Below are positions 15,048 to 58,116 of a DNA stretch of 64,000 nt, piece by piece (position 1 is the stretch's first letter; every line of letters starts with the position of its first letter). The notes beneath the pieces are model-generated. The model was not told the origin of the DNA. It saw only the letters and a program-made list of their open reading frames with translations, and did no database searches. The stretch lies in contig DATJYS010000005.1 in assembly GCA_035499455.1 (NCBI GenBank), forward strand, positions 551,348 to 615,347, written 5' to 3'. Position numbers and translations under genes: made by a program. This DNA comes from Thermoplasmata archaeon. Lineage in GTDB: Archaea; Thermoplasmatota; Thermoplasmata; Lutacidiplasmatales; UBA184.

Positions 15048-15839
15048 GTGCTGGCCTCAGACGCAGCCATGGACGACTTCCTCGTTTTCCTCGGGTTGAC
15101 CGCCCTCATGGGACTCTCGATCTTCCTCTCCCTGCCGATCGTCTACAGCAAGCGGGCGCAGGGGCGTTGGTCCGTCGGTCTGAACGCGGCCGCGATCGGG
15201 ATCCTGATCTTCCTGCTCGGAGACATCTTCTCTGACGTCGCCCCAATCCTCTACCCGAGCGGCTACGTCGCCGACCTCGGCTACTCCGTCGCGTTCGCCG
15301 TAGCGTTCACCGCGGCGTTCCTCGCGCTGCTCGCGGTCGACAACCTGCCGCGGTCTCCCGGGGCCCCGGTCGAGAGCTCACCCCGAACGACGGCGCTCAT
15401 CGTCGCCCTCGGGATCGGTCTCCAGAACCTGACGGAGGGTCTCGTCTTCGGGGTCAGCTGGACCACCGGCGCCATCGGGGTGCTCGCCGTCGTCTTCGTC
15501 GGCTTCTTCCTGCAGAACGTCACCGAGGGATTCCCGATCGCCGCGCCGTTCCTGGGGACCTCCGCGGGTCGACGCCTCCCGGTGATGGCCGGCCTGTTCC
15601 TCGTCGGCGGACTGCCGACCATCGTGGGGGGGATCATCGGCTACCACTGGAGCAACGATCTGTTCCTCGTGGTCTTCGACGCCCTCGCCATCGGCGCGAT
15701 CGTCTACGTGATCCTGCCGATGCTCCGGCTTGCCTTCCGGCCGCTCGAGTCTCGGGAGGCTTCGATGGCTCGGAACCGGCTCGTGTACCTCGGGGTCCTC
15801 GCCGGCTTCGTCCTCGGCTTCGCGGTCAACGCACTGTGA
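15048..15839 (+). CDS. ZIP-family (ZupT-like) divalent metal transporter
   Basis: Multi-TM ORF with ZIP signature GLQNLTEGLVFG and HW/NxTEG elements. Alternative start at Met 15069. Confidence 0.75.
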   Translation: MLASDAAMDDFLVFLGLTALMGLSIFLSLPIVYSKRAQGRWSVGLNAAAIGILIFLLGDIFSDVAPILYPSGYVADLGYSVAFAVAFTAAFLALLAVDNLPRSPGAPVESSPRTTALIVALGIGLQNLTEGLVFGVSWTTGAIGVLAVVFVGFFLQNVTEGFPIAAPFLGTSAGRRLPVMAGLFLVGGLPTIVGGIIGYHWSNDLFLVVFDALAIGAIVYVILPMLRLAFRPLESREASMARNRLVYLGVLAGFVLGFAVNAL

Positions 15840-15910
15840 GGCCCCCGAGGTCCGGCCCTCGTCGGCCGCCGCCCGGGGCCGCTATGTACGCGCTCGGGTC
15901 GTAAGGATCG

Positions 15911-16702
15911 ATGCCGCGAACGGCCCCCACGCCGGTCGTCTCGGTCCAGGTGATGCAGGCCCTCGTCGCCCGCGAGCTCGTCGAAGGGTTCGGGCTCTCC
16001 GAGCGACGCGCGGCGAAGCTCCTGGGACTCGTCCCATCGTCGGTCTCGCAGTACCTCTCGGGGAAGCGCCTCGGGCCCACGCTCTCGGTCTACCTCGCGG
16101 ACGAAGCGGCCCGCCAGATCGCCCACGAGGCGGCCCAAAAGCTGGTCGACGGCGGGTCCCACGCGATCCTGGAAGCTGCGGTCGCCTTCGAGGAGCGGTT
16201 CGGCCACGCTCCCGCGGGGTCCGAGCGCAGCCGCTCTTCCGCGCTCTCTCCAGCGCTCGTCCGAAAAGTGCCGGGGTGGCTCCGAAACCGGATCGCGGGA
16301 GAGCAGAACGCGGTCGCGGAGTGCATGCGGCTCGCCCAGCGCTCCAAGGACGAGCTGACGCGCGCCCTGTTCCGCCAGATCGCGTCCGACAGCCTGCGGC
16401 ACGCCGAGATCGTCGCCTCCTTGGCCGCGAACCTCGACCGGGGGATCGCGGCAACCCCCCCGACCGGGATCACCCGCAGCGACGTCGAGCATCTGATCCA
16501 ACGCGAGCGGGATGCGGAGGCGACGAGCGAGGTCGATCTCGGTCCGGAGCTCGGGGGGATCATGCGGGTCCTCTGGGACAGCATGGAGGCGGACGAACGA
16601 AAGCACGAGATCCTGCTCGGCAAGCTCCTCGAATCGGCGGACACCCCGTCGGTCGGGCGGGCGAACGGCCGACCCCGCCGGGCGCGACCCGCCCGCCGAT
16701 GA
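15911..16702 (+). CDS. putative transcriptional regulator: N-terminal XRE-like HTH fused to a ferritin/rubrerythrin-like four-helix domain
   Basis: HTH-like region (ERRAAKLLGLVPSSVSQYLSGKR). Paired E...H motifs in the C-terminal half (SLRHAEIVASL, ADERKHEILLGKL) suggest a di-metal ferritin-like fold. Assignment is tentative. Confidence 0.35.
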   Translation: MPRTAPTPVVSVQVMQALVARELVEGFGLSERRAAKLLGLVPSSVSQYLSGKRLGPTLSVYLADEAARQIAHEAAQKLVDGGSHAILEAAVAFEERFGHAPAGSERSRSSALSPALVRKVPGWLRNRIAGEQNAVAECMRLAQRSKDELTRALFRQIASDSLRHAEIVASLAANLDRGIAATPPTGITRSDVEHLIQRERDAEATSEVDLGPELGGIMRVLWDSMEADERKHEILLGKLLESADTPSVGRANGRPRRARPARR

Positions 16703-17283
16703 GCCCCGCCGCCCGCCGCGCCTCCCGTCGTCCCGACCGCGGGGACGAGCCGGCCGAGTGGGTCGTCCTCCTGAAGGGCGGCAACACGGGAGGGAACGTG
16801 TTCCGACCCAGCCTGTTGCCGAAGGCGCTGCCGCGCCTCGGCCTCGTCAGCCTCGGGGCGGCGGGGACGTTCGTAGCGGCGTCCCGGGAGAGCCCCTCCG
16901 CGATCCGCACAGCGATCGCCCACGCACTGCCGTTCCGGTCCGCTATCATGGTGGTCCCGGCCACGGAGATCCGGCGGATGCTCCGCCTCGACCCCGCGGC
17001 CGGGCTGGACGACGCGGACGGGACCCGGAAGTTCCTCACGGTCGCCGAGCGCCCGCTCCCGGCAGGCCGGCCGCTGCCGATCGCGGCCCCGGAACGGGGC
17101 CGCTGGGCGGTGCGGATCGTCGCGACCGACGGCCCGTTCGCTGCCGGGGTCTGCCGTCGGATCGGGCCGCAGGTGATCTACCCCAACACGATCGTCGAGC
17201 GGGAGTTCGGAGTGCCGGCGACGACCCGCTGGTGGGAGACGTTCGAAGCGCTCTGCCGCCGGTTCAGGGCGTCCGATCCGTGA
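16699..17283 (+). CDS. DUF1697-family protein
   Basis: VVLLKGGNTGGNVFRPSLL resembles the DUF1697 N-terminal LLRGINVGGxNKV motif. Its ATG overlaps the stop of the upstream regulator (ATGA). Confidence 0.5.
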   Translation: MSPAARRASRRPDRGDEPAEWVVLLKGGNTGGNVFRPSLLPKALPRLGLVSLGAAGTFVAASRESPSAIRTAIAHALPFRSAIMVVPATEIRRMLRLDPAAGLDDADGTRKFLTVAERPLPAGRPLPIAAPERGRWAVRIVATDGPFAAGVCRRIGPQVIYPNTIVEREFGVPATTRWWETFEALCRRFRASDP

Positions 17284-17456: not shown

Positions 17457-17468
17457 AAGATTATGTAT
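17457..17468 (+). promoter_or_regulatory. TATA-like element AAGATTATGTAT for a leaderless transcript of the repeat protein gene
   Basis: The only AT-rich patch in the 200-nt upstream region, centred about 27 nt upstream of ATG 17490. Confidence 0.4.
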
Positions 17469-17489
17469 CGAGACACCCCTTGCGCCGGC

Positions 17490-19883
17490 ATGGCGCCCTC
17501 TCCAGCGATTCGCCTTGCCGCAGTGTTTTTGGTCCTGGTCACGGTGGGGTCATCCCTCGCCGTTTTCGCCGTCGCCCCCGCCGCGGCCTATCGGGCGCCC
17601 GCGCCCGCGTTCGTCGTTTCCACCTCGCACGGCGTGAACCTCGTCGCCGGCCCCGCCGCCCATCCGAATCCGGCCGTCTCCTATCCGATCTTCTTCTACG
17701 AAACGGGACTCCCGTCGGGCATCAACTGGCAGATCACGGTGGGCCACGCTACGTCGAACTACGTGACGGACGGGAACACCGACTCCCTCGCCTTCTCCGA
17801 CCCGAACGGCGTCTACGCGTACTCCATCCAGGACATCTCGGGATGGCACCAGTCGAACCTCTCCTACCACGGCAACGTGGTCGTCAACGGGGCGTCCGTG
17901 ACGGAACCGACGTTGTCGTACTCGCAGGTCACCTACGCGGTGCAGTTCAGCGAGATGAGCCTCCCCTCGGGAAAGACGTTCCAGGTGACCCTGGGCGGCA
18001 ACCCCTCATCGCTCGTGACGGACGGGAGCACCGACACGTTGGCGTTCAACGTCCCGAACGGCACGTACAGCTACGCGATCCTCGACATCTCGGGCTGGCA
18101 TCAGGGGACCCTCCCGTACACCGGTCATGTGACCGTCACCGGATCGGGGGTGACCGAGGCGACCCTCATCTACGTCCAGGTCACCTACTCGGTCACGTTC
18201 CAGGAGAGCGGGATCGGCTCGGGGCAGACCTGGCAGGTGACGGTCAACAGCGTCGTGAAGTCCCTGACGACGAACGGCGCGACCGACGCCCTCTCGTGGT
18301 CCGGTCTCCCCAACGGCACGTACGCCTACTCGATCCAGGACATCGCCGGCTGGCACGAGGGCACGCTCCCGTACCACGGCTCCGTGGTCGTGGCGGGGTC
18401 GTCCGTGACGGAGTCGACGCTCGTCTACTTCCCCGTCACTTATTCGGTCGTGTTCACGGAGGTCGGCCTCCCCGCGGGCGAGACGTTCCAGGTGTCGGTC
18501 GGGCGGACGGGCGAGTCCCTCCTCACCGATGGGCACGCGGACAGCCTCTACTTCACCGCCGCGAACGGCACCTACTCCTACACGGTCACGGGCATCTCGG
18601 GCTGGCACCAGTCGAACATCACCTACACGGGAAGTTTGGTGATCACCGGCGCCCCGCTCACCGAGCCCACGCTCGAATTCCTGCAGGTGAACTACTCGGT
18701 GACGTTCACCGAGAGCGGCCTCCCCGCCGCGACCGTCTGGGCGGTCACCCTGAACGGCCAGACCCTTAGCTCGAACGGGACGATGATCGCGTTCAGCGAA
18801 CCGAACGGGACGTACGGCGACCACATCGACTACGTCGCCGGCTACCAGACCACGCCGTCCTCGTCCTCGGTCGTGGTGGCGGGCGCGGACCGCGCGATCT
18901 CGGTGCCGTTCACGCAGGTGACGTACACCCTCTCGTTCTCCGAGTCGACCCTGCCGTCGGGCACGCACTGGAGCGTCACCGTCGGCGTCACGACCCACAC
19001 GTCGACCGGCACGTCGATCGCGTTCACCCTCCCCAACGGGACGTACAGCTACTCGATCGGGTTTGTCTCGGGCTACGTCCCGACCGTCCCGAGCGGATCC
19101 GCCTCGATCACCGGCGCCTCGACCGTGGTCGCGGTGAGCTTCACGCAGGTCCAGTACACCCTGACGTTCACGGCGACCGGATTCCCGGCTACGGGCCACC
19201 CGAAGGTCTGGTCGGTCTCGCTGGACGGAACCCTCCAGACGACCTCCACCAGTTCGATCTCCTTCGCCGTGGCGAACGGCACGCACACGTACCTGGTCCG
19301 CGGACCGGCGGGATGGCGGGTCTCCTCCGTGCTCCCGCCCGAGGGATCGATCGTCATCAACGGGGAGAGCGCGAGCCAGGCCGTGACGTTCGTGCGCGGC
19401 GGCACGGGCACGGTGACGTTCCACGAGGTCGGTCTCGCGGTCGCGACGCGCTGGTGCGTCACCCTGGGCTCGCTGATCTGCTCCACGACCCCGAAGATCC
19501 TCTCGAAGAACCTGACCCCGGGAGCGTACTCCTACGTGATCAACACGTTCCACGGGGTCGACACGGTCGTCACCATCCACGGGGCCTCGGTCGGCACGTC
19601 GGGCGGCGTGGCGCTCGCTCACGGGACCACGGTGAAGGTGCGGTTCGCGTACGCGGTGACGTTCACCGAGTCGGGGCTGCCGTTCTCCACGAGCTGGAAG
19701 GTCGTGGCGGGAGGTCAGACGGTCATCTCGACCACAACCACGATCACGCTGTACCTCACCAACGGGACCTACACGTTCCACGTCGGCCACATCAGCGGAT
19801 ACACGGCCGCGCCCGGGTCCGGCGGCCTGCACGTCGCGGGCTCGAACCTGGCGGTGTCGATCCGGTTCTCGGTCGCGCGGTAG
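17490..19883 (+). CDS. secreted/surface protein: signal peptide followed by ten tandem ~80-aa beta-sandwich-like repeats
   Basis: N-terminal MAPSPAIRLAAVFLVLVTVGSSLAVFAVAPAAA. The ORF track starts at 17463, but the leaderless start 17490 is preferred. Repeats share the motif V(T/Y)YxVxFxESGLPxGxxWQVT...TDxLxF..PNGTYxYxIxDISGWH and each carries an N-x-T sequon. Confidence 0.75.
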   Translation: MAPSPAIRLAAVFLVLVTVGSSLAVFAVAPAAAYRAPAPAFVVSTSHGVNLVAGPAAHPNPAVSYPIFFYETGLPSGINWQITVGHATSNYVTDGNTDSLAFSDPNGVYAYSIQDISGWHQSNLSYHGNVVVNGASVTEPTLSYSQVTYAVQFSEMSLPSGKTFQVTLGGNPSSLVTDGSTDTLAFNVPNGTYSYAILDISGWHQGTLPYTGHVTVTGSGVTEATLIYVQVTYSVTFQESGIGSGQTWQVTVNSVVKSLTTNGATDALSWSGLPNGTYAYSIQDIAGWHEGTLPYHGSVVVAGSSVTESTLVYFPVTYSVVFTEVGLPAGETFQVSVGRTGESLLTDGHADSLYFTAANGTYSYTVTGISGWHQSNITYTGSLVITGAPLTEPTLEFLQVNYSVTFTESGLPAATVWAVTLNGQTLSSNGTMIAFSEPNGTYGDHIDYVAGYQTTPSSSSVVVAGADRAISVPFTQVTYTLSFSESTLPSGTHWSVTVGVTTHTSTGTSIAFTLPNGTYSYSIGFVSGYVPTVPSGSASITGASTVVAVSFTQVQYTLTFTATGFPATGHPKVWSVSLDGTLQTTSTSSISFAVANGTHTYLVRGPAGWRVSSVLPPEGSIVINGESASQAVTFVRGGTGTVTFHEVGLAVATRWCVTLGSLICSTTPKILSKNLTPGAYSYVINTFHGVDTVVTIHGASVGTSGGVALAHGTTVKVRFAYAVTFTESGLPFSTSWKVVAGGQTVISTTTTITLYLTNGTYTFHVGHISGYTAAPGSGGLHVAGSNLAVSIRFSVAR

Positions 19884-20157
19884 GGTTCGAGGGCCGCCCC
19901 TACACGGGGGCGCGGGTTCCCGTCGCCGCGCGTCCCGCGCGCGATACGCCTACCCTGCGGGACCGCCGCCGCTCGGGCGGACCGCGCGGTCCGTCGTGCG
20001 GGACCTGCCAGTACAGGGCAGGACGGGCACGAGGGTGGCCTACCCGGCCCCGCCACCCTGCGGCAGGGGCTTCCACCGGTGGGGTTGTCCGGGAGACAGC
20101 ACCGGCCCGATCTCGCCGAAGCGGGCCTGGGAGCGACTCCGAGGCGGGGCCCCTGGA

Positions 20158-22272
20158 TCACGCCGCGAGTCGGCCCAACGGCGCGGCGGCGAGCGCCACC
20201 ATCTCGGGCCCCGCGCTGAGGGATCGGATCCCGGAGCCGCCGGGCAGTCGCCCGATCGCCCCGTGGGCACCGGCCGTGGTGAAACTGACGAGGACCAGCG
20301 GCGTCGGATGGGGCGCGGTCACGACGAACGTCCCGGACGCGGGGTGGGGGTGCAGGTAGGTGAAGTTCGAGACCCGGAACGTGTAGGTGCCGTTCACCAG
20401 GTGGAACTTGATCGTCGCGGCCGTCGTGTGGATGCTCGCGTTCATCGGCCCGGTAATGTTGACGTCCCACGGAGTGCCCCGACCGAGGCCGACCGCGCGG
20501 AACGCCACCGTCGCGGTGACGAGCTTGAACTTGACCGTCTTCGTGATCGCGTGGATCCCGACCGTAACGGTCCCGTGCCCCGGGGTGGAGCCGTAGGTCG
20601 TGGGGTTCCCCGTGACGTGGAACTTCCAGGCGCCCTGGACGACCGTGAACGCGACCGACGAGGAGGTCGTGGAGGCCGATTGCGGCGCCGGTCCACCGTG
20701 CTTCAGCGCCGACTGCAGCGAGACGCCCCACGGAGAGCTCGGCGGAAGCCCCAGCTCGTCGAAGGTGAGCGACTCGAGGTGACCGAACTTCACCGCGAGG
20801 GTCACTTTCGCCCCCGAGATGTTCGCGGAACCCTGGGTCGGCTGGAGCGGGCCGGTGACCTTCGAGACAGCATAGTCCGCCGGAGGGGTGAACGAGAAGG
20901 CGAGCACGCCGCTCGGGACGAGCACCACGATCGTTCCCTTCGCGTGCACCGTGACGTCCGAGAGGACCACGGGCGGAGCCCCGACGCTGACGGACCACAG
21001 GGTCGCCGGGGGAAGGCCCGTTGCCCGGAACGTCACCTGGGTGAGCACGAGAACGCTGACGCTTGCGGACCCCTGGTTCGCCACGTACACCGCGGTCGCG
21101 TTCACCGGGTCGACCGCGAGGGCGTCCGGCTGGTCCCCGACGGGGATCGACCCCGCGACCCGGGCCGGGGAGGTCGCGAGCACGGTCACGTTGCCCGATC
21201 CCCCGTTCGCCTCGTAGACGTAGCCGGTCGCGGAACTGTAGGTCATCGCGTCGTCCATGCCGGGGGCTTCCCCGACCGGGACCGTGGCGATCACCGTGTT
21301 GTTGACGGTCGAGATGACGCTCACGTTGTTGGAGAAGTGGTTCGCCACGAAGAGCTCCTTGGCGGCGCCGTCCACCGCAAGCCCCGTGGGGCCCGATCCG
21401 ACCGCGACCGTCGCGTTCAGGGAGCCGTTGGACCCCCAGAGGACGCTGACGTTGTCCGAACCGACATTCGCGACGTAGACCCGGCCGTTCGCCGGGTCGA
21501 ACAGCATCGCGCCGTTCGGCCCCGGGTCGGTGCCAACGGTCGTCGTCCGGATGACGGTGTTCGTGGCGCCCGAGATCACGCTCACGTTGTCCGACCCTGC
21601 CTCCGCCACGAAGACGTCGTGGGTCGTCGGGTCGAGCACGAGGGCGTCCGGATCCGGACCGACGGGTACCGTGTCGATCACCCGGGGGATCGCGGCCGCA
21701 GGGGAGATGATGCTGACCGTCCCCGACCCACCGTTCGAGACGTAGACGTCGTGGTTCGCGGGATTCACGACGATCGCGTTCGGCTCCACCCCGACCGGGA
21801 CGGACGCAACGACTGAGAGCTCGGAGATCGAGATGACGCTCACGTTGTCGGAGCCCGCATTCGAGACGTAGACCGTCCAGTTCGTGGTGTCGAGCGCGAT
21901 GCCGCCCGGTGCGGGTTGCGACCCCACGGGGATGGTCGCGATCAGTTCGTTCGTGGCGATCGCGATCGCGCTCACGTTGTTTCCGAACTGGGAGGCGACG
22001 AAGACCGTCCCGTTCGCGGGATCAACGAGCACCGAATCCGGTCCCGCACCCACCGGCACGACCGGCGGCGCTGTGGCCGGACGATCGACCGATGGGACGA
22101 TGGGGAGAGCGGCGCGCGCCGACGGCGCCGAGGGCGGCGACGAGAGGGAGGGCGGATGCACCGGCGAAGCGGCTCCACCCGCCACAACGGCGCTCGAGGT
22201 GACCACGAGGATCGCCAAGACGACGATCGCGACGGACGCAGGTCGGGCCATAGTTTCGACCCCAGAAGACAT
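20158..22272 (-). CDS. secreted YVTN-family beta-propeller protein with C-terminal repeats of the same beta-sandwich module
   Basis: Signal peptide (MARPASVAIVVLAILVVTSSAVVAGG). At least seven YVTN-type blades (VYVSNxGSDNVSVIS pattern). The C-terminal third has three or four copies of the V(T/A)FxxxGLPxxxxWxV module found in 17490..19883. Start is 22272 or 22251. Confidence 0.75.
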   Translation of the reverse strand: MSSGVETMARPASVAIVVLAILVVTSSAVVAGGAASPVHPPSLSSPPSAPSARAALPIVPSVDRPATAPPVVPVGAGPDSVLVDPANGTVFVASQFGNNVSAIAIATNELIATIPVGSQPAPGGIALDTTNWTVYVSNAGSDNVSVISISELSVVASVPVGVEPNAIVVNPANHDVYVSNGGSGTVSIISPAAAIPRVIDTVPVGPDPDALVLDPTTHDVFVAEAGSDNVSVISGATNTVIRTTTVGTDPGPNGAMLFDPANGRVYVANVGSDNVSVLWGSNGSLNATVAVGSGPTGLAVDGAAKELFVANHFSNNVSVISTVNNTVIATVPVGEAPGMDDAMTYSSATGYVYEANGGSGNVTVLATSPARVAGSIPVGDQPDALAVDPVNATAVYVANQGSASVSVLVLTQVTFRATGLPPATLWSVSVGAPPVVLSDVTVHAKGTIVVLVPSGVLAFSFTPPADYAVSKVTGPLQPTQGSANISGAKVTLAVKFGHLESLTFDELGLPPSSPWGVSLQSALKHGGPAPQSASTTSSSVAFTVVQGAWKFHVTGNPTTYGSTPGHGTVTVGIHAITKTVKFKLVTATVAFRAVGLGRGTPWDVNITGPMNASIHTTAATIKFHLVNGTYTFRVSNFTYLHPHPASGTFVVTAPHPTPLVLVSFTTAGAHGAIGRLPGGSGIRSLSAGPEMVALAAAPLGRLAA

Positions 22273-24320: not shown

Positions 24321-24470
24321 CGCGGCGTCCGTCGGCGGATCCCCCCGGGCCGAGCGGACTCTCGAGACCGAATCGAGCCTTCCTTGGGAGGGGGAGCGCG
24401 GCGACGTCGGTCGCTTCCGGCCACGCGTCCCGGGCGCGCCGGGACGGTTCGCCCTCCCAGCATAAGTCCC

Positions 24471-24543
24471 GGGCCCGAGGGGATTTGAACCCCTGATCTT
24501 GCGGTTAAGAGCCGCCTGCTCTACCGGGCTGAGCTACGGGCCC
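24471..24543 (-). tRNA. tRNA-Lys (anticodon CUU)
   Basis: Reverse complement GGGCCCGTAGCTCAGCCCGGTAGAGCAGGCGGCTCTTAACCGCAAGATCAGGGGTTCAAATCCCCTCGGGCCC folds as a cloverleaf: 7-bp acceptor stem, GTTCAAATC T-loop, anticodon loop CTCTTAA, and a G27-A43 mismatch. No encoded CCA. Confidence 0.85.
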
Positions 24544-53624: not shown

Positions 53625-54071
53625 CTACAGCCCGAGCTGGAACCCGCCGGAGCCTCCCGCCGAGAAGAGACCCTGGATCGAGTTCCCGAGGGCGGTGAGT
53701 CCGGTCGCCGAAGCGAACGCGGAAAGGGTGCTCGAGACTCCGGGCACTCCCGCGTACGCGGCGGCCGCCACCGAGGCGATCCCCAGGGCGACCCCGAGGG
53801 CCGCCTTGACCGCGATGCTCGCCGTCCATCCGGCCGCGAGCGTACCGCTCCCGGCCGAGGCCGCGAGCGACGTGCCGGCCGCTCCCGCGGCCGACGCCGT
53901 CGCGGCACCGGACGCCGAGCCCGGTGCTCCGGCGGTGCCGCTCGGGGACGGGATCGTCAGCGACCCAGAACCCGACCCGGCGACTGACCCGCTCGCTGCT
54001 CCGGTGCTCCCTCCGGCCGTAGTGCTCGCTCCTGCCATCGCGCTTAGGCTGCTGCTTTCTGTCGCCATCAT
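53625..54071 (-). CDS. possible small Gly/Ala/Ser-rich protein with one hydrophobic helix (very uncertain)
   Basis: 148-aa low-complexity ORF. It may be spurious. Confidence 0.2.
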   Translation of the reverse strand: MMATESSSLSAMAGASTTAGGSTGAASGSVAGSGSGSLTIPSPSGTAGAPGSASGAATASAAGAAGTSLAASAGSGTLAAGWTASIAVKAALGVALGIASVAAAAYAGVPGVSSTLSAFASATGLTALGNSIQGLFSAGGSGGFQLGL

Positions 54072-54195
54072 GGGCGTCTCAGTTCCCCTGGGCGGTCGGG
54101 GCTAGAAGTAATCCGGTACCGTTCCGCCTTCCTCCGGTTGGACATTTCGCCGCGCGGCTGACGGACGGTGCGGCGCCCTTGCCCCCTCTGGAGCG

Positions 54196-54202
54196 CTTTA
54201 AA
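54196..54202 (+). promoter_or_regulatory. TATA box (CTTTAAA) for tRNA-Cys
   Basis: About 28 nt upstream of the tRNA 5' end. Confidence 0.5.
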
Positions 54203-54226
54203 CCCCGTTCGGCTGGGACCCCTCGC

Positions 54227-54299
54227 GCCGAGGTGGCAGAATGGTTAATGCGACAGACTGCAGATCTGTTTCCTGGGGGTTCGATTCCCTCCCTCGGCT
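54227..54299 (+). tRNA. tRNA-Cys (anticodon GCA)
   Basis: GCCGAGGTGGCAGAATGGTTAATGCGACAGACTGCAGATCTGTTTCCTGGGGGTTCGATTCCCTCCCTCGGCT folds with a 7-bp acceptor stem, anticodon stem ACAGA/TCTGT, loop CTGCAGA and T-loop TTCGATT. Confidence 0.85.
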
Positions 54300-54326
54300 G
54301 GATTTTCAGGGCGAGTCCGTGCCAGA

Positions 54327-54596
54327 TTATCGGAAGCGCTGATAGAATCCTGCCCGCGGTCCGAAGGTCAGGAAGTCGCAGCGACCTCGCCCGTCGAAGC
54401 GGAAGACCGCCCGGTATTCTCCCACGGCAAGCCGGTGGAGCGACCTCGAGCCCCGGATCGCGACAATGTCGAGGTCGCGAATCGGAAGAGTTCGAGCCGC
54501 ATCGAGCCGGGAAAGCGCGCCCAGGAAAGTGCGACGAATCCTTTCCGGCAGGAGCTCCAGCTCGCGCTGAGCCGCCTCCCGGACCGTGACTTCCAT
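54327..54596 (-). CDS. RelE/ParE-family type II toxin
   Basis: 89-aa ORF with RelE/ParE C-terminal signature (YRAVFRFDGRGRCDFLTFGPRAGFY). Confidence 0.7.
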   Translation of the reverse strand: MEVTVREAAQRELELLPERIRRTFLGALSRLDAARTLPIRDLDIVAIRGSRSLHRLAVGEYRAVFRFDGRGRCDFLTFGPRAGFYQRFR

Positions 54597-54826
54597 CAGG
54601 CTTTGGCGCGACGCGCAGCCAACCTTCGCCGCACTTCGGTGAGTTCCAGCGGGGGCGACTCACGGAGCCGGCGCTCCATCTCCTTGAGAAACGACTCCGG
54701 GGGGAACTGCTCGACGAACTCTTCGATCACGTTCTCGTAGGTTTGGCCGGGCCGCTTGTACAACTCCAAGACTCGACGAGTCGACTCGTGGACTTGGATC
54801 GAGGTCAGCGCATCGGTTCCGGACAC
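54596..54826 (-). CDS. cognate antitoxin (76 aa)
   Basis: Overlaps the toxin start by 1 nt. GTG start at 54826, directly downstream of a palindromic operator. Confidence 0.5.
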   Translation of the reverse strand: MSGTDALTSIQVHESTRRVLELYKRPGQTYENVIEEFVEQFPPESFLKEMERRLRESPPLELTEVRRRLAARRAKA

Positions 54827-54832
54827 ACGACT

Positions 54833-54849
54833 TCTATGGTATCCATAGA
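54833..54849. promoter_or_regulatory. perfect palindrome TCTATGG-TAT-CCATAGA: putative autoregulatory operator/promoter of the toxin-antitoxin operon
   Basis: 7-3-7 inverted repeat 7 nt upstream of the antitoxin start, overlapping an AT-rich TATA-like stretch (GATATCTAT on the minus strand). Confidence 0.5.
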
Positions 54850-55077
54850 TATCACCGTTTCGCAGCGCGGCTCTTGGTCAATGGCCTGTCCTCCCCGGCT
54901 GCCTCCCCGGTGGCCAGCGAACTACCCCAGTCAGAAATCGCCGCGCGGCGTCATGCCCCCATCTATCGGACCGCACCTGCCCCCTAAGGACTCGAATGGA
55001 TCGACGAGTCGAACTACGCCCAAGACTCCAAGAGCCCGCCTTGGTTAGATTCAAGGCACACTACAGGTCTCATCAAC

Positions 55078-55581
55078 ATGGACGCCCAACAGACCTCCAC
55101 TAACGGAAAAATCCGGGCCTCCATGACCGAGGTACGTGTTCGGCTCGGAGCATTCGGCTGCGCGCTGGGGGCGGTCATGTCCGCGCTCTTTGTGCGGGTG
55201 TTTTACCCGTCGTTCTCTCCGTCCGTCTGGGGTCTGATCGCGTCTGGCTGGATAGGGACGATCCTGGGATGCTGGCTTTTACAACGTGACATTGCAGCGT
55301 ACGTCGAAGTCAGCGAGGCCGGCGTGACACTCGGATCTCCACGCCCCCGACCGGGCAGGGCGAATCATGTCCTCATTCCTTGGAAGGGCTTCAGGATGCT
55401 CGGCGCAAACAAACTGAATGTTCGGCTTGGAATCTTTCCATTCATCACCTCGGACCCATACCTGCCAGTGAATCTGACATACAGGCAGGCGAGAGCGGTC
55501 ATGAGTCACCCTTTGTTCCCGATCAAGGAGCGACCACCCTGGCTAGTTGCTCGACTCGGTCTACGGGGGCCGACCTACTGA
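55078..55581 (+). CDS. membrane protein with two TM helices and a bacterial PH-like (bPH_2/DUF304-like) domain
   Basis: 167-aa ORF in the lower-GC island. Family assignment is tentative. Confidence 0.4.
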   Translation: MDAQQTSTNGKIRASMTEVRVRLGAFGCALGAVMSALFVRVFYPSFSPSVWGLIASGWIGTILGCWLLQRDIAAYVEVSEAGVTLGSPRPRPGRANHVLIPWKGFRMLGANKLNVRLGIFPFITSDPYLPVNLTYRQARAVMSHPLFPIKERPPWLVARLGLRGPTY

Positions 55582-55923
55582 AGGTTCAACAACCAAGTCC
55601 GTCCGGGATTGAGATCTTCGCTCACGTGAGGGTCCTATCCTGAGTTGCATCTACGTCCTTCGGTTCATCGGTGAGCACGGTCGTATCCCCGCGGGGCAGA
55701 ACGGCTACGGGCAAGTTGCACTTTGTGTTGGCTGCTGTGCCGGTCCGGAGGCAATTGAATCCCGAGGTGAACTGCTACTACGGGATTGACCTGGAGGCGA
55801 AGCGACCCCGAGAGTGCCAGCGAATCCCGACCCTTCCTTACAGAGGCCAAGTTTAGAATGCCGCCACTCCCGAGCGTCTTTTGAATGGGGCTGCCCCAGC
55901 AGCATCGGAACCGAACTTTCCGA

Positions 55924-55944
55924 CGATACCCTCCCTCGGCTGGA
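55924..55944 (+). repeat. direct repeat copy 2 of the tRNA-Cys 3' end (att-like)
   Basis: CGATACCCTCCCTCGGCTGGA against tRNA CGATTCCCTCCCTCGGCTGGA. One mismatch over 21 nt. Confidence 0.7.
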
Positions 55945-56449
55945 ATTCATCAACGCGTCGCCGCGGCGGGATGCTCGAGCCTTCCGAAGGAGCAGCGAAC
56001 GACGCACGGTCCTCGCGACCGCCCTAGGGCGCGATCGCGTACGATTGACCCCATCGACCGGACGCTGCGTCCGAAAGGGGATGGGTCTCCAGCGTGCTCT
56101 CGTGGAGCGGCCCATACGTCCTCTGGCCCAGCCGCTCCGCTACCTACCGCATCCCGGTCCAGGTGCGCCGGTTGCCAGGCGCTCGGAGATTCCGTCAACG
56201 AACGTCCTTCCCATTGCTGGGCTTTGACGGTCAGATCTCCCTCGATCGTCGCCGCTTCTCGGTACGCTTCCGCGAGTGTCTCGGGAACTCGGCTTCTTCG
56301 AACGCTCGATGGCGCCTCCGCCGAACCCGTCTCACCCCGTCTCAAGAAGGACGAATGGCCCGAACCCCGGAAGCTCGAGCCGCGAGTCGGCGCGCTTGGA
56401 GCACAATCGAAATGTAGTGATGGCTAATTATTAGGACGACCTATTTATA

Positions 56450-56902
56450 ATGCCCGGCCGTGGGGGGCGCATGGAGCCGCTCCAGAAGCTGACCCGTCGA
56501 CAAGTCGAGACCCTGCAAAGCATTCGGCTCCTCGAAACACCGGAGCGGGGCGCACCGCTGAAGCGGATCGCGGCATCGATGCATGTCAGCGCCCCGTCGG
56601 CGTTGGGCCACGTTACTCCGCTCGAGGGGCTCGGACTGGTCGAACGATATCGGGGGAAAAGTCGCCTCACGGCCCGGGGGCGCGGGACGCTTCTCGAGTA
56701 TCAACGACATCACCGCGTCGCAGAGAGCATGTTCGGTCGTCTCGGGCTCCCTCCTTCCGAGACCTGCGCCGCGGCGCGCGAGATCGATCTCGCGATCTCC
56801 CACCGCACCGTCGAGGACGTGTGCCGGGCGCAGGCCCACCCGACGACGTGTCCTCACGGTGAGCCGATTCCAGCGTGTTCTAGCGACCAGGGAGGTCACT
56901 GA
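56450..56902 (+). CDS. DtxR/MntR-family metal-dependent transcriptional repressor
   Basis: N-terminal winged HTH (LTRRQVETLQSIRLL...LKRIAASMHVSAPSALGHV) followed by a dimerisation/metal-binding domain. Confidence 0.65.
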   Translation: MPGRGGRMEPLQKLTRRQVETLQSIRLLETPERGAPLKRIAASMHVSAPSALGHVTPLEGLGLVERYRGKSRLTARGRGTLLEYQRHHRVAESMFGRLGLPPSETCAAAREIDLAISHRTVEDVCRAQAHPTTCPHGEPIPACSSDQGGH

Positions 56903-56904
56903 CG

Positions 56905-58116
56905 ATGGCGGCCAACACCCCTCCCCCGGGAGAACTCGACCCGGCGTCGTCCGCGCCCTTCGGAGGGAGTCCGCCGGGCACGACATCCCCGGGCGCCGGC
57001 GCTCGCCGAAAGTCCGGCCGAAAGGCCATGTCGACGATGACGATTGTCGGGATCGTGGCGGTCATCGCCATCCTCGTCGGGAGCGCGACCGCGTACGAAC
57101 TTTTGACCAGCAAGGCCCCCGGCAACCCCTGCGCCGCCTTCACGCCCCAGCAGCTCGGCGCGGACCCCACGGCGGGTCAAGTCTCGGGCAACACGACCCC
57201 GAACTACGCGATCGCGACCACCCTCACGAACGGGCCCCTCCAAACGGTGCCCAATGGCACAACGATCCAAGTGGTCGCGGGGGAGAACTTCTGGGGGAGT
57301 CTCATCAGTCAGCTGGGCGGGAACCTGACGACGGTGCTCAGCATTGTGAGCGACCCGAACGCCGACCCGCATGACTACGAGGCGAACCCCGCGGATGCGG
57401 CCGCGATTGCCCACGCGAATCTCGTGGTCGTCAACGGGGTCGGCTATGACGATTGGGCGCTCCAGCTGATCTCGTCGTCGGACAGTGCGGGGCAGGAAGT
57501 ATTGAACGTCGGCCACCTGAACGGCGTCTATGTCACGGGTGGAATCGTCACGGGCAATGAACACCAGTGGTACAACCCGCTCTACGTGAACCACACGCTG
57601 CTGGCGATGTACTACGATCTCGTCGCCCTCCAACCGGAGTCGAAGGCGATTTTCCAGCACAACTTCGCCAACCTCAACACCTCCGCGGGCGCCGGTGGAG
57701 GGGTCTCGATCGACCAGCTCTACGCCCGCGCCCACCAGATCAAAGAGGAGTTCGCCGGCACGGCCGTGGTCTCCACCGAGAGCATCTTCGTCTACCTTGC
57801 CAACTACACCGGACTCGACCTGATTTCTCCCCCGGAGTTCATGGAGGCGATCGCGGAAGGGAACGATCCGCCCGCGGCCAGCGTTGCGTTGTTCGAGTGT
57901 CAGATCGAGGGCGGGTACGTGCATGTGCTCGTGTACAACATCCAGACGGTGACCCCGATCACGACCATCCTCGAGGGGCTCGCGGGAGAGCACAACGTGA
58001 CGAGCACTTACGTGAGCGAGACGATCCAGCCCCCCGACACGAGCTTCCAGGACTGGATGTACGGGGAGTACAACAGCCTCTACAACGCGCTCAACGCGAG
58101 ACAGTTGGGAATGTGA
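56905..58116 (+). CDS. metal (Mn/Zn/Fe) ABC transporter substrate-binding protein, TroA/ZnuA cluster A-I type, with N-terminal membrane anchor
   Basis: DPHDYEANPADA matches the DPHxWxxP motif of ZnuA/TroA. N-terminal TM segment MSTMTIVGIVAVIAILVG. Many N-x-S/T sequons. Confidence 0.75.
   Translation: MAANTPPPGELDPASSAPFGGSPPGTTSPGAGARRKSGRKAMSTMTIVGIVAVIAILVGSATAYELLTSKAPGNPCAAFTPQQLGADPTAGQVSGNTTPNYAIATTLTNGPLQTVPNGTTIQVVAGENFWGSLISQLGGNLTTVLSIVSDPNADPHDYEANPADAAAIAHANLVVVNGVGYDDWALQLISSSDSAGQEVLNVGHLNGVYVTGGIVTGNEHQWYNPLYVNHTLLAMYYDLVALQPESKAIFQHNFANLNTSAGAGGGVSIDQLYARAHQIKEEFAGTAVVSTESIFVYLANYTGLDLISPPEFMEAIAEGNDPPAASVALFECQIEGGYVHVLVYNIQTVTPITTILEGLAGEHNVTSTYVSETIQPPDTSFQDWMYGEYNSLYNALNARQLGM

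Follow-up and report, generated by a model that had tools for sequence, protein, structure and literature searches.

The window considered here is a 64,000-nt stretch of Thermoplasmata archaeon DNA (contig DATJYS010000005.1, positions 551,348 to 615,347 of the forward strand; GC content about 71%). It carries two neighbouring genes, A and B, whose products share an ~80-residue repeat and are predicted to be exported. In the open reading frame (ORF) list, gene A (17490..19883, forward strand) codes for 797 residues and gene B (20158..22272, reverse strand) for 704 residues. Gene calls on two public contigs with identical sequence give the same starts and product lengths. The earlier note, made by a model from the letters alone, had placed two convergent genes at these positions, separated by 274 nt. 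Both the coordinates and the arrangement were borne out, since positions 19884..20157 lie between the two stop codons. The word ‘giant’ used there for the products was, in contrast, an overstatement in view of their lengths. The features of the locus are collected in Table 1.

The longest ORF of gene A would begin at position 17463. Ortholog N-termini align instead to an ATG at 17490, as do the gene calls. A TATA-like box precedes this second ATG by 22–33 nt, and in DNA of 71% GC content such an AT-rich box favours the start at 17490, with a leader that would be short or absent. We accepted 17490, rather than 17463, as the probable start. For gene B, alignment showed that orthologs begin at the equivalent of Met8 (22251), so that the true start may be there; this changes nothing of substance.

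Table 1. Features of the A–B locus, in window coordinates
Feature	Coordinates	Strand	Description
TATA-like AT-rich box AAGATTATGTAT	17457..17468	+	22–33 nt upstream of the ATG at 17490; includes the ATG of the longest ORF (17463)
Gene A	17490..19883	+	N-terminal signal-like segment, short Ala/Pro-rich linker, nine tandem beta-sandwich repeats (fold predicted), no tail
A residues 1–33	17490..17588	+	MAPSPAIR, hydrophobic core of ~20–25 residues, APAAA; putative Sec signal peptide or uncleaved signal anchor
A repeats 1–4 (residues 63–146, 147–230, 231–315, 316–399)	17676..18686	+	84–85-residue subtype; TDGxTD and DISGWHQ..LPY.G motifs
A repeats 5–9 (residues 400–476, 477–553, 554–636, 637–718, 719–797)	18687..19880	+	77–83 residues
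Spacer between both stop codons	19884..20157	.	274 nt, GC-rich; 16-bp perfect palindrome and imperfect hairpins
Gene B	20158..22272	-	N-terminal helix, Pro/Ser/Ala linker, eight-bladed YVTN propeller (predicted), three repeat domains, disordered tail
B residues 666–704	20161..20277	-	disordered tail, poorly conserved, without transmembrane segment
B residues 411–665	20278..21042	-	three divergent A-type repeats: 411–498, 499–583, 584–665
B residues 71–410	21043..22062	-	eight-bladed YVTN beta-propeller (TIGR02276, AlphaFold2, Foldseek)
B residues 1–70	22063..22272	-	hydrophobic helix (~residues 12–33), then disordered Pro/Ser/Ala-rich linker of ~40 residues

Gene A had been described as ten tandem repeats. 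A tandem array of one ~80-residue module is indeed present, but searches with two hidden Markov models (HMMs) both delimited nine units, not ten, of 77–85 residues each (boundaries in Table 1). Each unit matched an HMM built from A's own units with an independent E-value (iE) of 1e-28 to 1e-37, and a family HMM built from 872 repeats of 120 homologs with an iE of 5e-12 to 2e-27. The units fall into subtypes: pairwise local scores reach 196–250 among repeats 1–4 (84–85 residues) against 45–180 for the other pairs, repeats 5, 6 and 9 measure 77–79 residues, and repeats 7 and 8 each stand alone. The possibility of a recent tandem duplication was ruled out by the absence of any tandem repeat at the DNA level. 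Together with the low identity of the units to the reference unit (22–56%), this indicates that the copies are old and diverged. Orthologs of A at 48–69% identity carry the same nine units, and an alignment of 25 of them revealed invariant residues specific to each of the nine positions. Thus, the nine-domain layout is a conserved design and not a variable-number array. No match of gene A to TIGR02276, and none of A or B to PF05317 (thermopsin), was obtained in the Pfam and NCBIfam scans.

Two local features of the array deserve mention. Repeat 8 (window 19398–19643) is the most aberrant unit, lacking the NGT site described below and having a different C-terminal half. Its two cysteines, C656 and C664, do not vary among the 25 orthologs and may form a disulfide or a metal site particular to this repeat. 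In addition, all orthologs show a fully or almost fully invariant T-D-G-x-T-D loop in repeats 1, 2 and 4, whereas repeat 3 reads TNGATD; from its sequence this could be a Ca2+-binding loop.

Gene B combines a propeller with copies of the same module. Its product matched TIGR02276 (YVTN) with an E-value of 4.9e-49 (164 bits, for a cut-off of 27.85) over eight stretches, and also exceeded the respective cut-offs of the Pfam families Lactonase and YNCE. The AlphaFold2 model, obtained from an alignment of 40 orthologs, has a mean predicted local distance difference test (pLDDT) score of 85.3. It includes a helix at residues 15–25, segments with pLDDT below 50 (1–14, 24–65 and 669–704), 32 strands arranged as eight four-stranded blades over residues 71–410 (pLDDT above 90) and an all-beta region of three domains over residues 411–665 (block pLDDT 74–97, mostly above 85). 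Where at least seven blades had been proposed, the TIGR02276 stretches and the modelled strands thus both point to eight. Among PDB structures searched with Foldseek, the best match was 1L0Q (E 8e-23, 26% identity), and hydrazine synthase beta and YncE were also found.

The module copies of B, previously estimated as three or four, are indeed of the type present in A as judged by the family HMM (iE 1.4e-11, 2.3e-11 and 5.7e-15), but there are exactly three and they are very divergent. The HMM made from the units of A likewise detected three in B. All three are kept in four translated orthologs. We considered that they might correspond one to one to the last three repeats of A, as a shared docking module. 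This was rejected, since the three copies score 44–92 against every A repeat, none of which stands out as a partner. No PKD family was found in B at E ≤ 1 in the Pfam scan. Within the 64-kb window, A and B are the only carriers of the repeat according to the family HMM.

The repeat itself is outside every curated family of Pfam and NCBIfam: for this module, whole-protein scans returned no family above threshold, only sub-threshold noise. When 102 single repeats were compared with Pfam, NOMO1-like_1st (the first beta-sandwich) was matched by 4 of them and Big_13, SpaA (E 0.038), SpaA_2 (E 0.035) and PKD_6 (E 0.033) by one each, all below cut-off. Individual repeats also gave weak, sub-cut-off matches to DUF5979, and NCBI names one cluster member ‘DUF5979 domain-containing’. 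A structure prediction of A repeat 2, from an alignment of 102 diverse repeats, yielded an eight-strand all-beta sandwich without helix at a pLDDT of 97.9, consistent with the defined beta-sandwich that had been anticipated. Compared with the PDB by Foldseek, this model had no match below E 1e-3. The best ones (E 4e-3 to 0.1, TM-scores 0.5–0.63, identity 12–23%) were B-repeat or pilin domains of Gram-positive adhesins (UafA, SdrD, TIE, GBS52, Spy0125), the transthyretin-like domain of carboxypeptidase D and CBM20-type modules. Similarly, a profile search of PDB sequences gave as best match a SpaA-like protein of prealbumin fold (E 0.027) over the LPNG.Y...GY hairpin. The repeat is possibly a very distant relative of the prealbumin/CnaB-like class of beta-sandwiches, as far as the model and these matches indicate.

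One could ask whether the repeats are simply CnaB/SpaA domains of pilin or MSCRAMM type, with stabilising isopeptide bonds and a sortase-like enzyme to polymerise or anchor them, since the best structural and profile matches are of this type. But these matches are weak, none being better than E 4e-3. In addition, no conserved Lys is present in any of the 80 columns of the 872-repeat profile (none above a few percent), and no LPXTG, PGF-CTERM or other C-terminal sorting motif was found in A, B or their orthologs when a hidden anchor or sorting signal was sought. Already disfavoured by these results, such an identity appears highly improbable to us. The tripartite C-terminal signal of archaeosortase substrates (motif, transmembrane (TM) helix, basic tail) is absent from A and B, and anchored paralogs carry a plain TM helix and an RRR tail without a PGF motif.

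A second candidate, a divergent InlB B-repeat (PF18998), was suspected from the Y.VTF start of the units and from matches in paralogs. However, the PF18998 stretches lie exactly in the gaps between repeat units (residues 801–868 of protein P0427, 356–419 of P0388 and 597–663 of P0416), showing that they represent a separate, inserted domain, and PF18998 is not among the 25 most often matched of the 44 families found with the 102 repeats. These three low-GC paralogs thus each contain one genuine PF18998 domain between repeat units. The NCBI name of P0427, ‘InlB B-repeat-containing protein’, stems from this single domain, the other 11 of its 12 domains belonging to the uncurated family.

To get access to the extent of the family, a profile search was performed over 1.84 billion representatives of clusters formed at 50% identity. 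It returned 8,406 proteins at E ≤ 1e-3, of which 3,980 at E ≤ 1e-30, with up to 44 repeat units in one protein. Its N-terminal motif, Y.VTF.E.GLP.GT.W.V, is strongly conserved in the 872-repeat profile. Confirmed members bearing a taxon name are all from Thermoplasmata/Thermoplasmatota, except for one protein of a Micrarchaeaceae metagenome-assembled genome (MAG; P0419), which also has a different N-terminus. Taxonomic breadth beyond close relatives rests on these protein searches, while related loci were retrieved with the ortholog alignment (TDGxTD pattern). MAGs of soil, peat and acid soil are the source of the relatives, and AcS isolates are among the related loci. AcS is a naming series applied to acid-soil Lutacidiplasmatales MAGs, which have a GC content of about 69% (PMC9287336); this value and the acid-soil origin of relatives would fit the 71% GC of the window. 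An apparent Bacteroidetes member (L046, PHDH01000001.1) proved to be a false positive: a tblastn match at 31% identity to Ser/Thr-rich sequence of 32% GC, without HMM match. Another locus labelled ‘bacterium’ (L031, DAIDCO010000039.1) genuinely belongs to the family, with four repeats and a GC content of 68%, so that its label probably denotes an unclassified bin.

The usual layout of paralogs consists of an N-terminal signal, an optional head, 6–15 repeats, a Ser-rich linker, a TM helix and an Arg/Lys-rich tail (RRR). P0427, from a Cuniculiplasma sp. MAG, is an example: it has 11 units and is anchored by a C-terminal TM helix. Such a layout is the hallmark of type I cell-surface proteins, with the repeat as the stalk. 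The heads include YVTN/NHL propellers, thermopsin (PF05317), phosphoesterase (PF04185, E 2e-58 in P0117) and several unannotated domains. Thermopsin shares a protein with the repeat in P0044, in P0077 and in the gene downstream of the A–B pair in L003. Since it stands beside the repeat in these paralogs and is absent from A and B, the repeat is a partner of thermopsin and not a part of it. The L003 gene (11209–14427 of that locus, MAG MFD00144 bin23) codes for a large exported protein of 1877 residues.

We further examined whether A and B belong together. A B ortholog lies directly downstream of a full-length A ortholog in every genome with enough flanking sequence, that is in 10 distinct genomes including the window. 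L005 retains the pair although the genes flanking it on either side are entirely different. No B ortholog accompanies the paralogs found in these genomes (L009, L011, L016, L017 and others), and downstream of the L014 paralog there is only a distant YVTN relative (27–31% identity). Orientation is less constant: the two genes are convergent in six genomes (the window, L004/L007, L005, L006/L010, L012 and L039) and on the same strand in the other four (L003/L022, L008, L013 and L027). The paired functional module suggested by the earlier note is therefore supported in terms of linkage, but the convergence on which it had been based is not conserved. Adjacency kept without orientation suggests a functional coupling that does not require co-transcription, and suggests that A and B are jointly acting components of a single surface-coat assembly. 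The S-layer, adhesin or scaffold functions put forward in the earlier note are, by comparison, conjectural.

Concerning export, a Kyte-Doolittle analysis detected exactly one TM-grade segment per protein, located at the N-terminus in both. In A its 19-residue mean is 2.46 (next best 1.47) and in B it is 2.66. This lone segment, with the layout of the paralogs, supports the extracellular placement of A and B proposed earlier, at the level of sequence features. No TM anchor was detected in the C-terminal 40 residues of either protein (best 15-residue mean 1.2). A stops at its last repeat, and the tail of B (1.24) is disordered and variable or absent in orthologs. The previously noted lack of a C-terminal anchor is thus confirmed for both proteins and, from sequence, hydropathy and alignments, for their orthologs.

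How the N-terminal segment is processed can be read in two ways. In A, a long hydrophobic region is followed by a candidate AxA-type site before Y34 (APAAA/Y, the slash marking the putative cleavage point), and the segment is kept in orthologs. This site would argue for cleavage, whereas the long core, together with the linker of B, would argue for a signal anchor. In the latter case A and B would be type II membrane proteins, tethered by an uncleaved N-terminal helix, with the Pro/Ser/Ala linker as a stalk that replaces the C-terminal anchor of the paralogs. The cores comprise ~20–25 uncharged residues, the helix of B is followed by ~40 disordered residues that mirror the Ser-rich pre-TM linker of the paralogs, and no other anchor exists in A, B or orthologs. 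On the other hand, a helix-breaking Pro and small residues follow the core in A and many orthologs (also APIAAA/H and APASA/G), as in a typical signal-peptidase site, and archaeal signal peptides are often long. We regard a type II topology as possible, though on the unlikely side.

At the other terminus, tails, when present, end with an Arg located 3–5 residues from the C-terminus (…VRLG, …LRLV, …VRLL, …GRPDA, …VRPDE). This was observed in A orthologs P0008, P0009, P0021, P0022, P0027, P0029, P0032 and P0046 and in B orthologs P0121–P0135; B itself ends with …GRLAA (window 20161–20200). In some A orthologs an amphipathic W-L-x-R-x-x-x-x-x-R-L helix precedes the tail Arg. By its sequence, this Arg tail may be a docking or processing motif.

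The other shared property is the abundance of N-glycosylation sequons. B contains 17 of them against 6.1 in shuffled sequences (p < 2e-4) and A contains 12 against 7.0, a weak enrichment (p = 0.03). In the 120 homologs, 3299 were counted for 1402 ± 31 expected from shuffles, and 56% of all Asn are in sequons. Among neighbouring cytoplasmic or membrane proteins, six have none and two others have one and two. A sequon had been announced in almost every repeat or blade. This holds for A, with at least one in each repeat, but not entirely for B, in which the middle copy has none and N-V-[ST] occurs in six of the eight blades. At the conserved position of the repeat (PNGT), seven of the nine A units carry a sequon, repeat 1 reading NGV and repeat 8 PGA. 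Over the 872 repeats the frequencies are 92% for N, 96% for G and 96% for T plus S, third-position residues other than these two staying at 1% or less, and the complete N-G-[ST] site is kept in ~90%.

Could these sequons be a by-product of fold and composition? Asn-Gly is typical of a type I' hairpin turn, the domain contains 26–35% Ser/Thr, and other positions of the repeat also exceed 80% Ser/Thr. In the model of the repeat, N44-G45 forms a two-residue turn between strands 36–42 and 45–51 of a beta-hairpin. As the bacterial SpaA-like LPNGDY motif falls at the aligned place, conservation of Asn-Gly is in part structural. However, the restriction of the third position to T or S favours selection for the sequon itself, and the excess over the whole family goes in the same direction. 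Moreover, in six of the eight propeller blades of B the Asn of N-V-S replaces the usual residue of the YVTN motif, for which the TIGR02276 consensus has Thr or Ser. A purely structural or compositional origin therefore seems unlikely to us. According to a passage of PMC12448462 that cites Vinogradov 2012, surface proteins and filaments of Thermoplasmatales are heavily N-glycosylated. Sequon enrichment and the T/S-only third position make N-glycosylation of A and B likely.

Taken together, these results lead us to propose, with somewhat better than even confidence, that A and B are exported envelope proteins of an uncultured, high-GC Thermoplasmata archaeon of acid soil, which probably falls within or close to the order Lutacidiplasmatales, and that they are built from an uncurated ~80-residue domain, sugar-coated and taking part in a coat assembly. 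Export would be Sec-dependent, through the single N-terminal hydrophobic segment. The tandem domains would then form a beads-on-a-string rod, of nine units in A and of three units carrying a propeller head in B; the folds of the unit and of B were modelled, and the extended shape is our extrapolation. The repeat would act as a rigid spacer or stalk keeping heads such as propellers, thermopsin and phosphoesterase off the membrane. N-G-[ST] in the exposed hairpin and other sequons would be glycosylated by an AglB-type enzyme, as their enrichment suggests. Finally, having no C-terminal TM anchor of the kind that most paralogs possess, A and B could be retained at the surface by an uncleaved N-terminal helix, or by binding to each other or to anchored paralogs.

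Several points weigh against this proposal. Export, cleavage and glycosylation of A and B are predictions, and their mutual binding is something we infer. The sequon excess of A is weak and the hairpin Asn-Gly partly structural, as described above. The adjacency of the two genes could in part be inherited synteny, orthologs being 47–72% identical, and the changes in orientation of B show that the pair is not an obligate operon.

Another function would be compatible with the missing C-terminal anchor: A and B might be freely released binders, through which a scavenging heterotroph captures substrate, polysaccharide or mineral, and not coat components. The repeat occurs in fusion with acid peptidases and phosphoesterases that are secreted, shows weak fold matches to CBM20 and to the AMPK glycogen-binding domain (E 0.05–0.1), and Lutacidiplasmatales are predicted scavengers of peptides and carbohydrates (PMC9287336). 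Nevertheless, most family members are membrane-anchored, the likeness to carbohydrate-binding modules is no better than that to adhesin stalks, and no conserved aromatic binding platform was noticed in a look that was not in depth. We thus consider free release improbable and retain the coat assembly as the preferred interpretation.

The surroundings of the pair were also inspected. In the middle of the spacer lies a 16-bp perfect palindrome, CGGACCGCGCGGTCCG (19978–19993), accompanied by two imperfect hairpins (19991–20035 and 20032–20059). Its 14-bp core, GGACCGCGCGGTCC, has a single occurrence in the window, for 0 expected. No oligo-T terminator was found in the 274 nt by the terminator scan, although scans for sigma-70 promoters and intrinsic terminators are uninformative for archaeal DNA. 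A structured RNA or other element was sought and rejected, with no Rfam match and only the palindromes present. The palindromes could serve as 3'-end structures of the two transcripts or as a binding site for a protein. Upstream of A, three genes (15048–17283) code for a ZIP-like transporter (weak Pfam match), a helix-turn-helix and rubrerythrin-like protein of 263 residues and a 194-residue protein without family; they are syntenic in the closest relatives L001–L004 but not in L005/L006. A LysW/LysX-type amino-acid biosynthesis cluster is located upstream of the A–B locus, and a tRNA gene (24470–24543, reverse strand) lies between thioesterase and deoxyhypusine synthase genes. Further away, positions 54001–58000 have a GC content of 0.61–0.65, compared to ~0.71 elsewhere, with a tRNA gene at 54227–54299; an integrated element, or an island, could be present there beside the tRNA.

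Among characterised proteins, the closest architecture to B is that of 1L0Q, a fragment of a Methanosarcina mazei surface-layer protein with tandem YVTN propeller and PKD domains. Both are archaeal exported YVTN propellers followed by small beta-sandwich domains. In 1L0Q the following domain is PKD, whereas in B it is the uncurated repeat, and the propeller of 1L0Q is seven-bladed, compared to eight blades in the model of B. The B-repeats of Gram-positive MSCRAMMs and pilins (SdrD B1–B5, UafA B, TIE, SpaA-like) resemble the archaeal repeats as tandem ~80–110-residue beta-sandwich stalks under a binding head, and have the LPNG.Y ... GY hairpin motif in common with them. In contrast, the archaeal repeat is rich in sequons and has neither isopeptide Lys nor LPXTG, nor any demonstrated EF-like Ca-binding loop, the anchor of the paralogs being a C-terminal TM helix. 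Carboxypeptidase regulatory-like and transthyretin-like domains (CarboxypepD_reg, NOMO1-like, DUF5979) are linked to the repeat by weak Pfam and fold matches, all below curated cut-offs, but the archaeal repeat differs from them by its own N-terminal motif.

A further parallel is offered by SlaA and SlaB of Sulfolobales, which are encoded by adjacent genes and are heavily N-glycosylated, beta-sandwich-rich envelope proteins that assemble together. This analogy with A and B is a functional one only, and SlaB has a C-terminal TM anchor that both A and B lack. Closer in taxonomy, the candidate S-layer genes of Picrophilus torridus and of the acid mine drainage (AMD) plasmas were assigned to COG3391 (YVTN) from genomics alone, and an S-layer is lacking in Cuniculiplasma even though it has such genes (PMC3750248, PMC5155288). 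Like B, these are exported YVTN-propeller proteins of Thermoplasmata, the likeness being one of protein class.

Thermoplasmata are mostly without S-layers, and their coat glycoproteins still await identification (PMC12448462). Cryo-tomography of Cuniculiplasma divulgatum and Oxyplasma meridianum, both S-layer-less, revealed a dense, unordered and probably glycoprotein ‘exterior protein layer’, the constituents of which were not identified in that work (PMC12448462). The family studied here is a plausible candidate for this layer, being abundant, membrane-anchored, rich in sequons and represented in a Cuniculiplasma MAG. A more specific version, in which the repeat family is the main material of the layer and the anchor-less A–B pair, as a dedicated outer element of two components, docks on anchored paralogs non-covalently, through homotypic contacts, is a long shot that we consider quite doubtful. 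If it were true, A and B would be functional analogs of SlaA and SlaB, built from a different, lineage-specific domain.

As a kind, such proteins are ordinary, since surface proteins made of tandem beta-sandwiches or YVTN propellers are well known. With its counts corrected, the outline given by the earlier note, of an exported beta-sandwich surface module, appears right as judged from sequence features and models. What is new is the domain: a conserved ~80-residue module, absent from Pfam and NCBIfam, found in thousands of Thermoplasmata envelope proteins, where it carries extracellular acid peptidases, phosphoesterases and propellers. Curating it as a model would provide a list of coat candidates, including P0427, that could be checked by proteomics or tomography, and would improve the annotation of soil and peat archaeal MAGs, in which these genes are now ‘hypothetical’.

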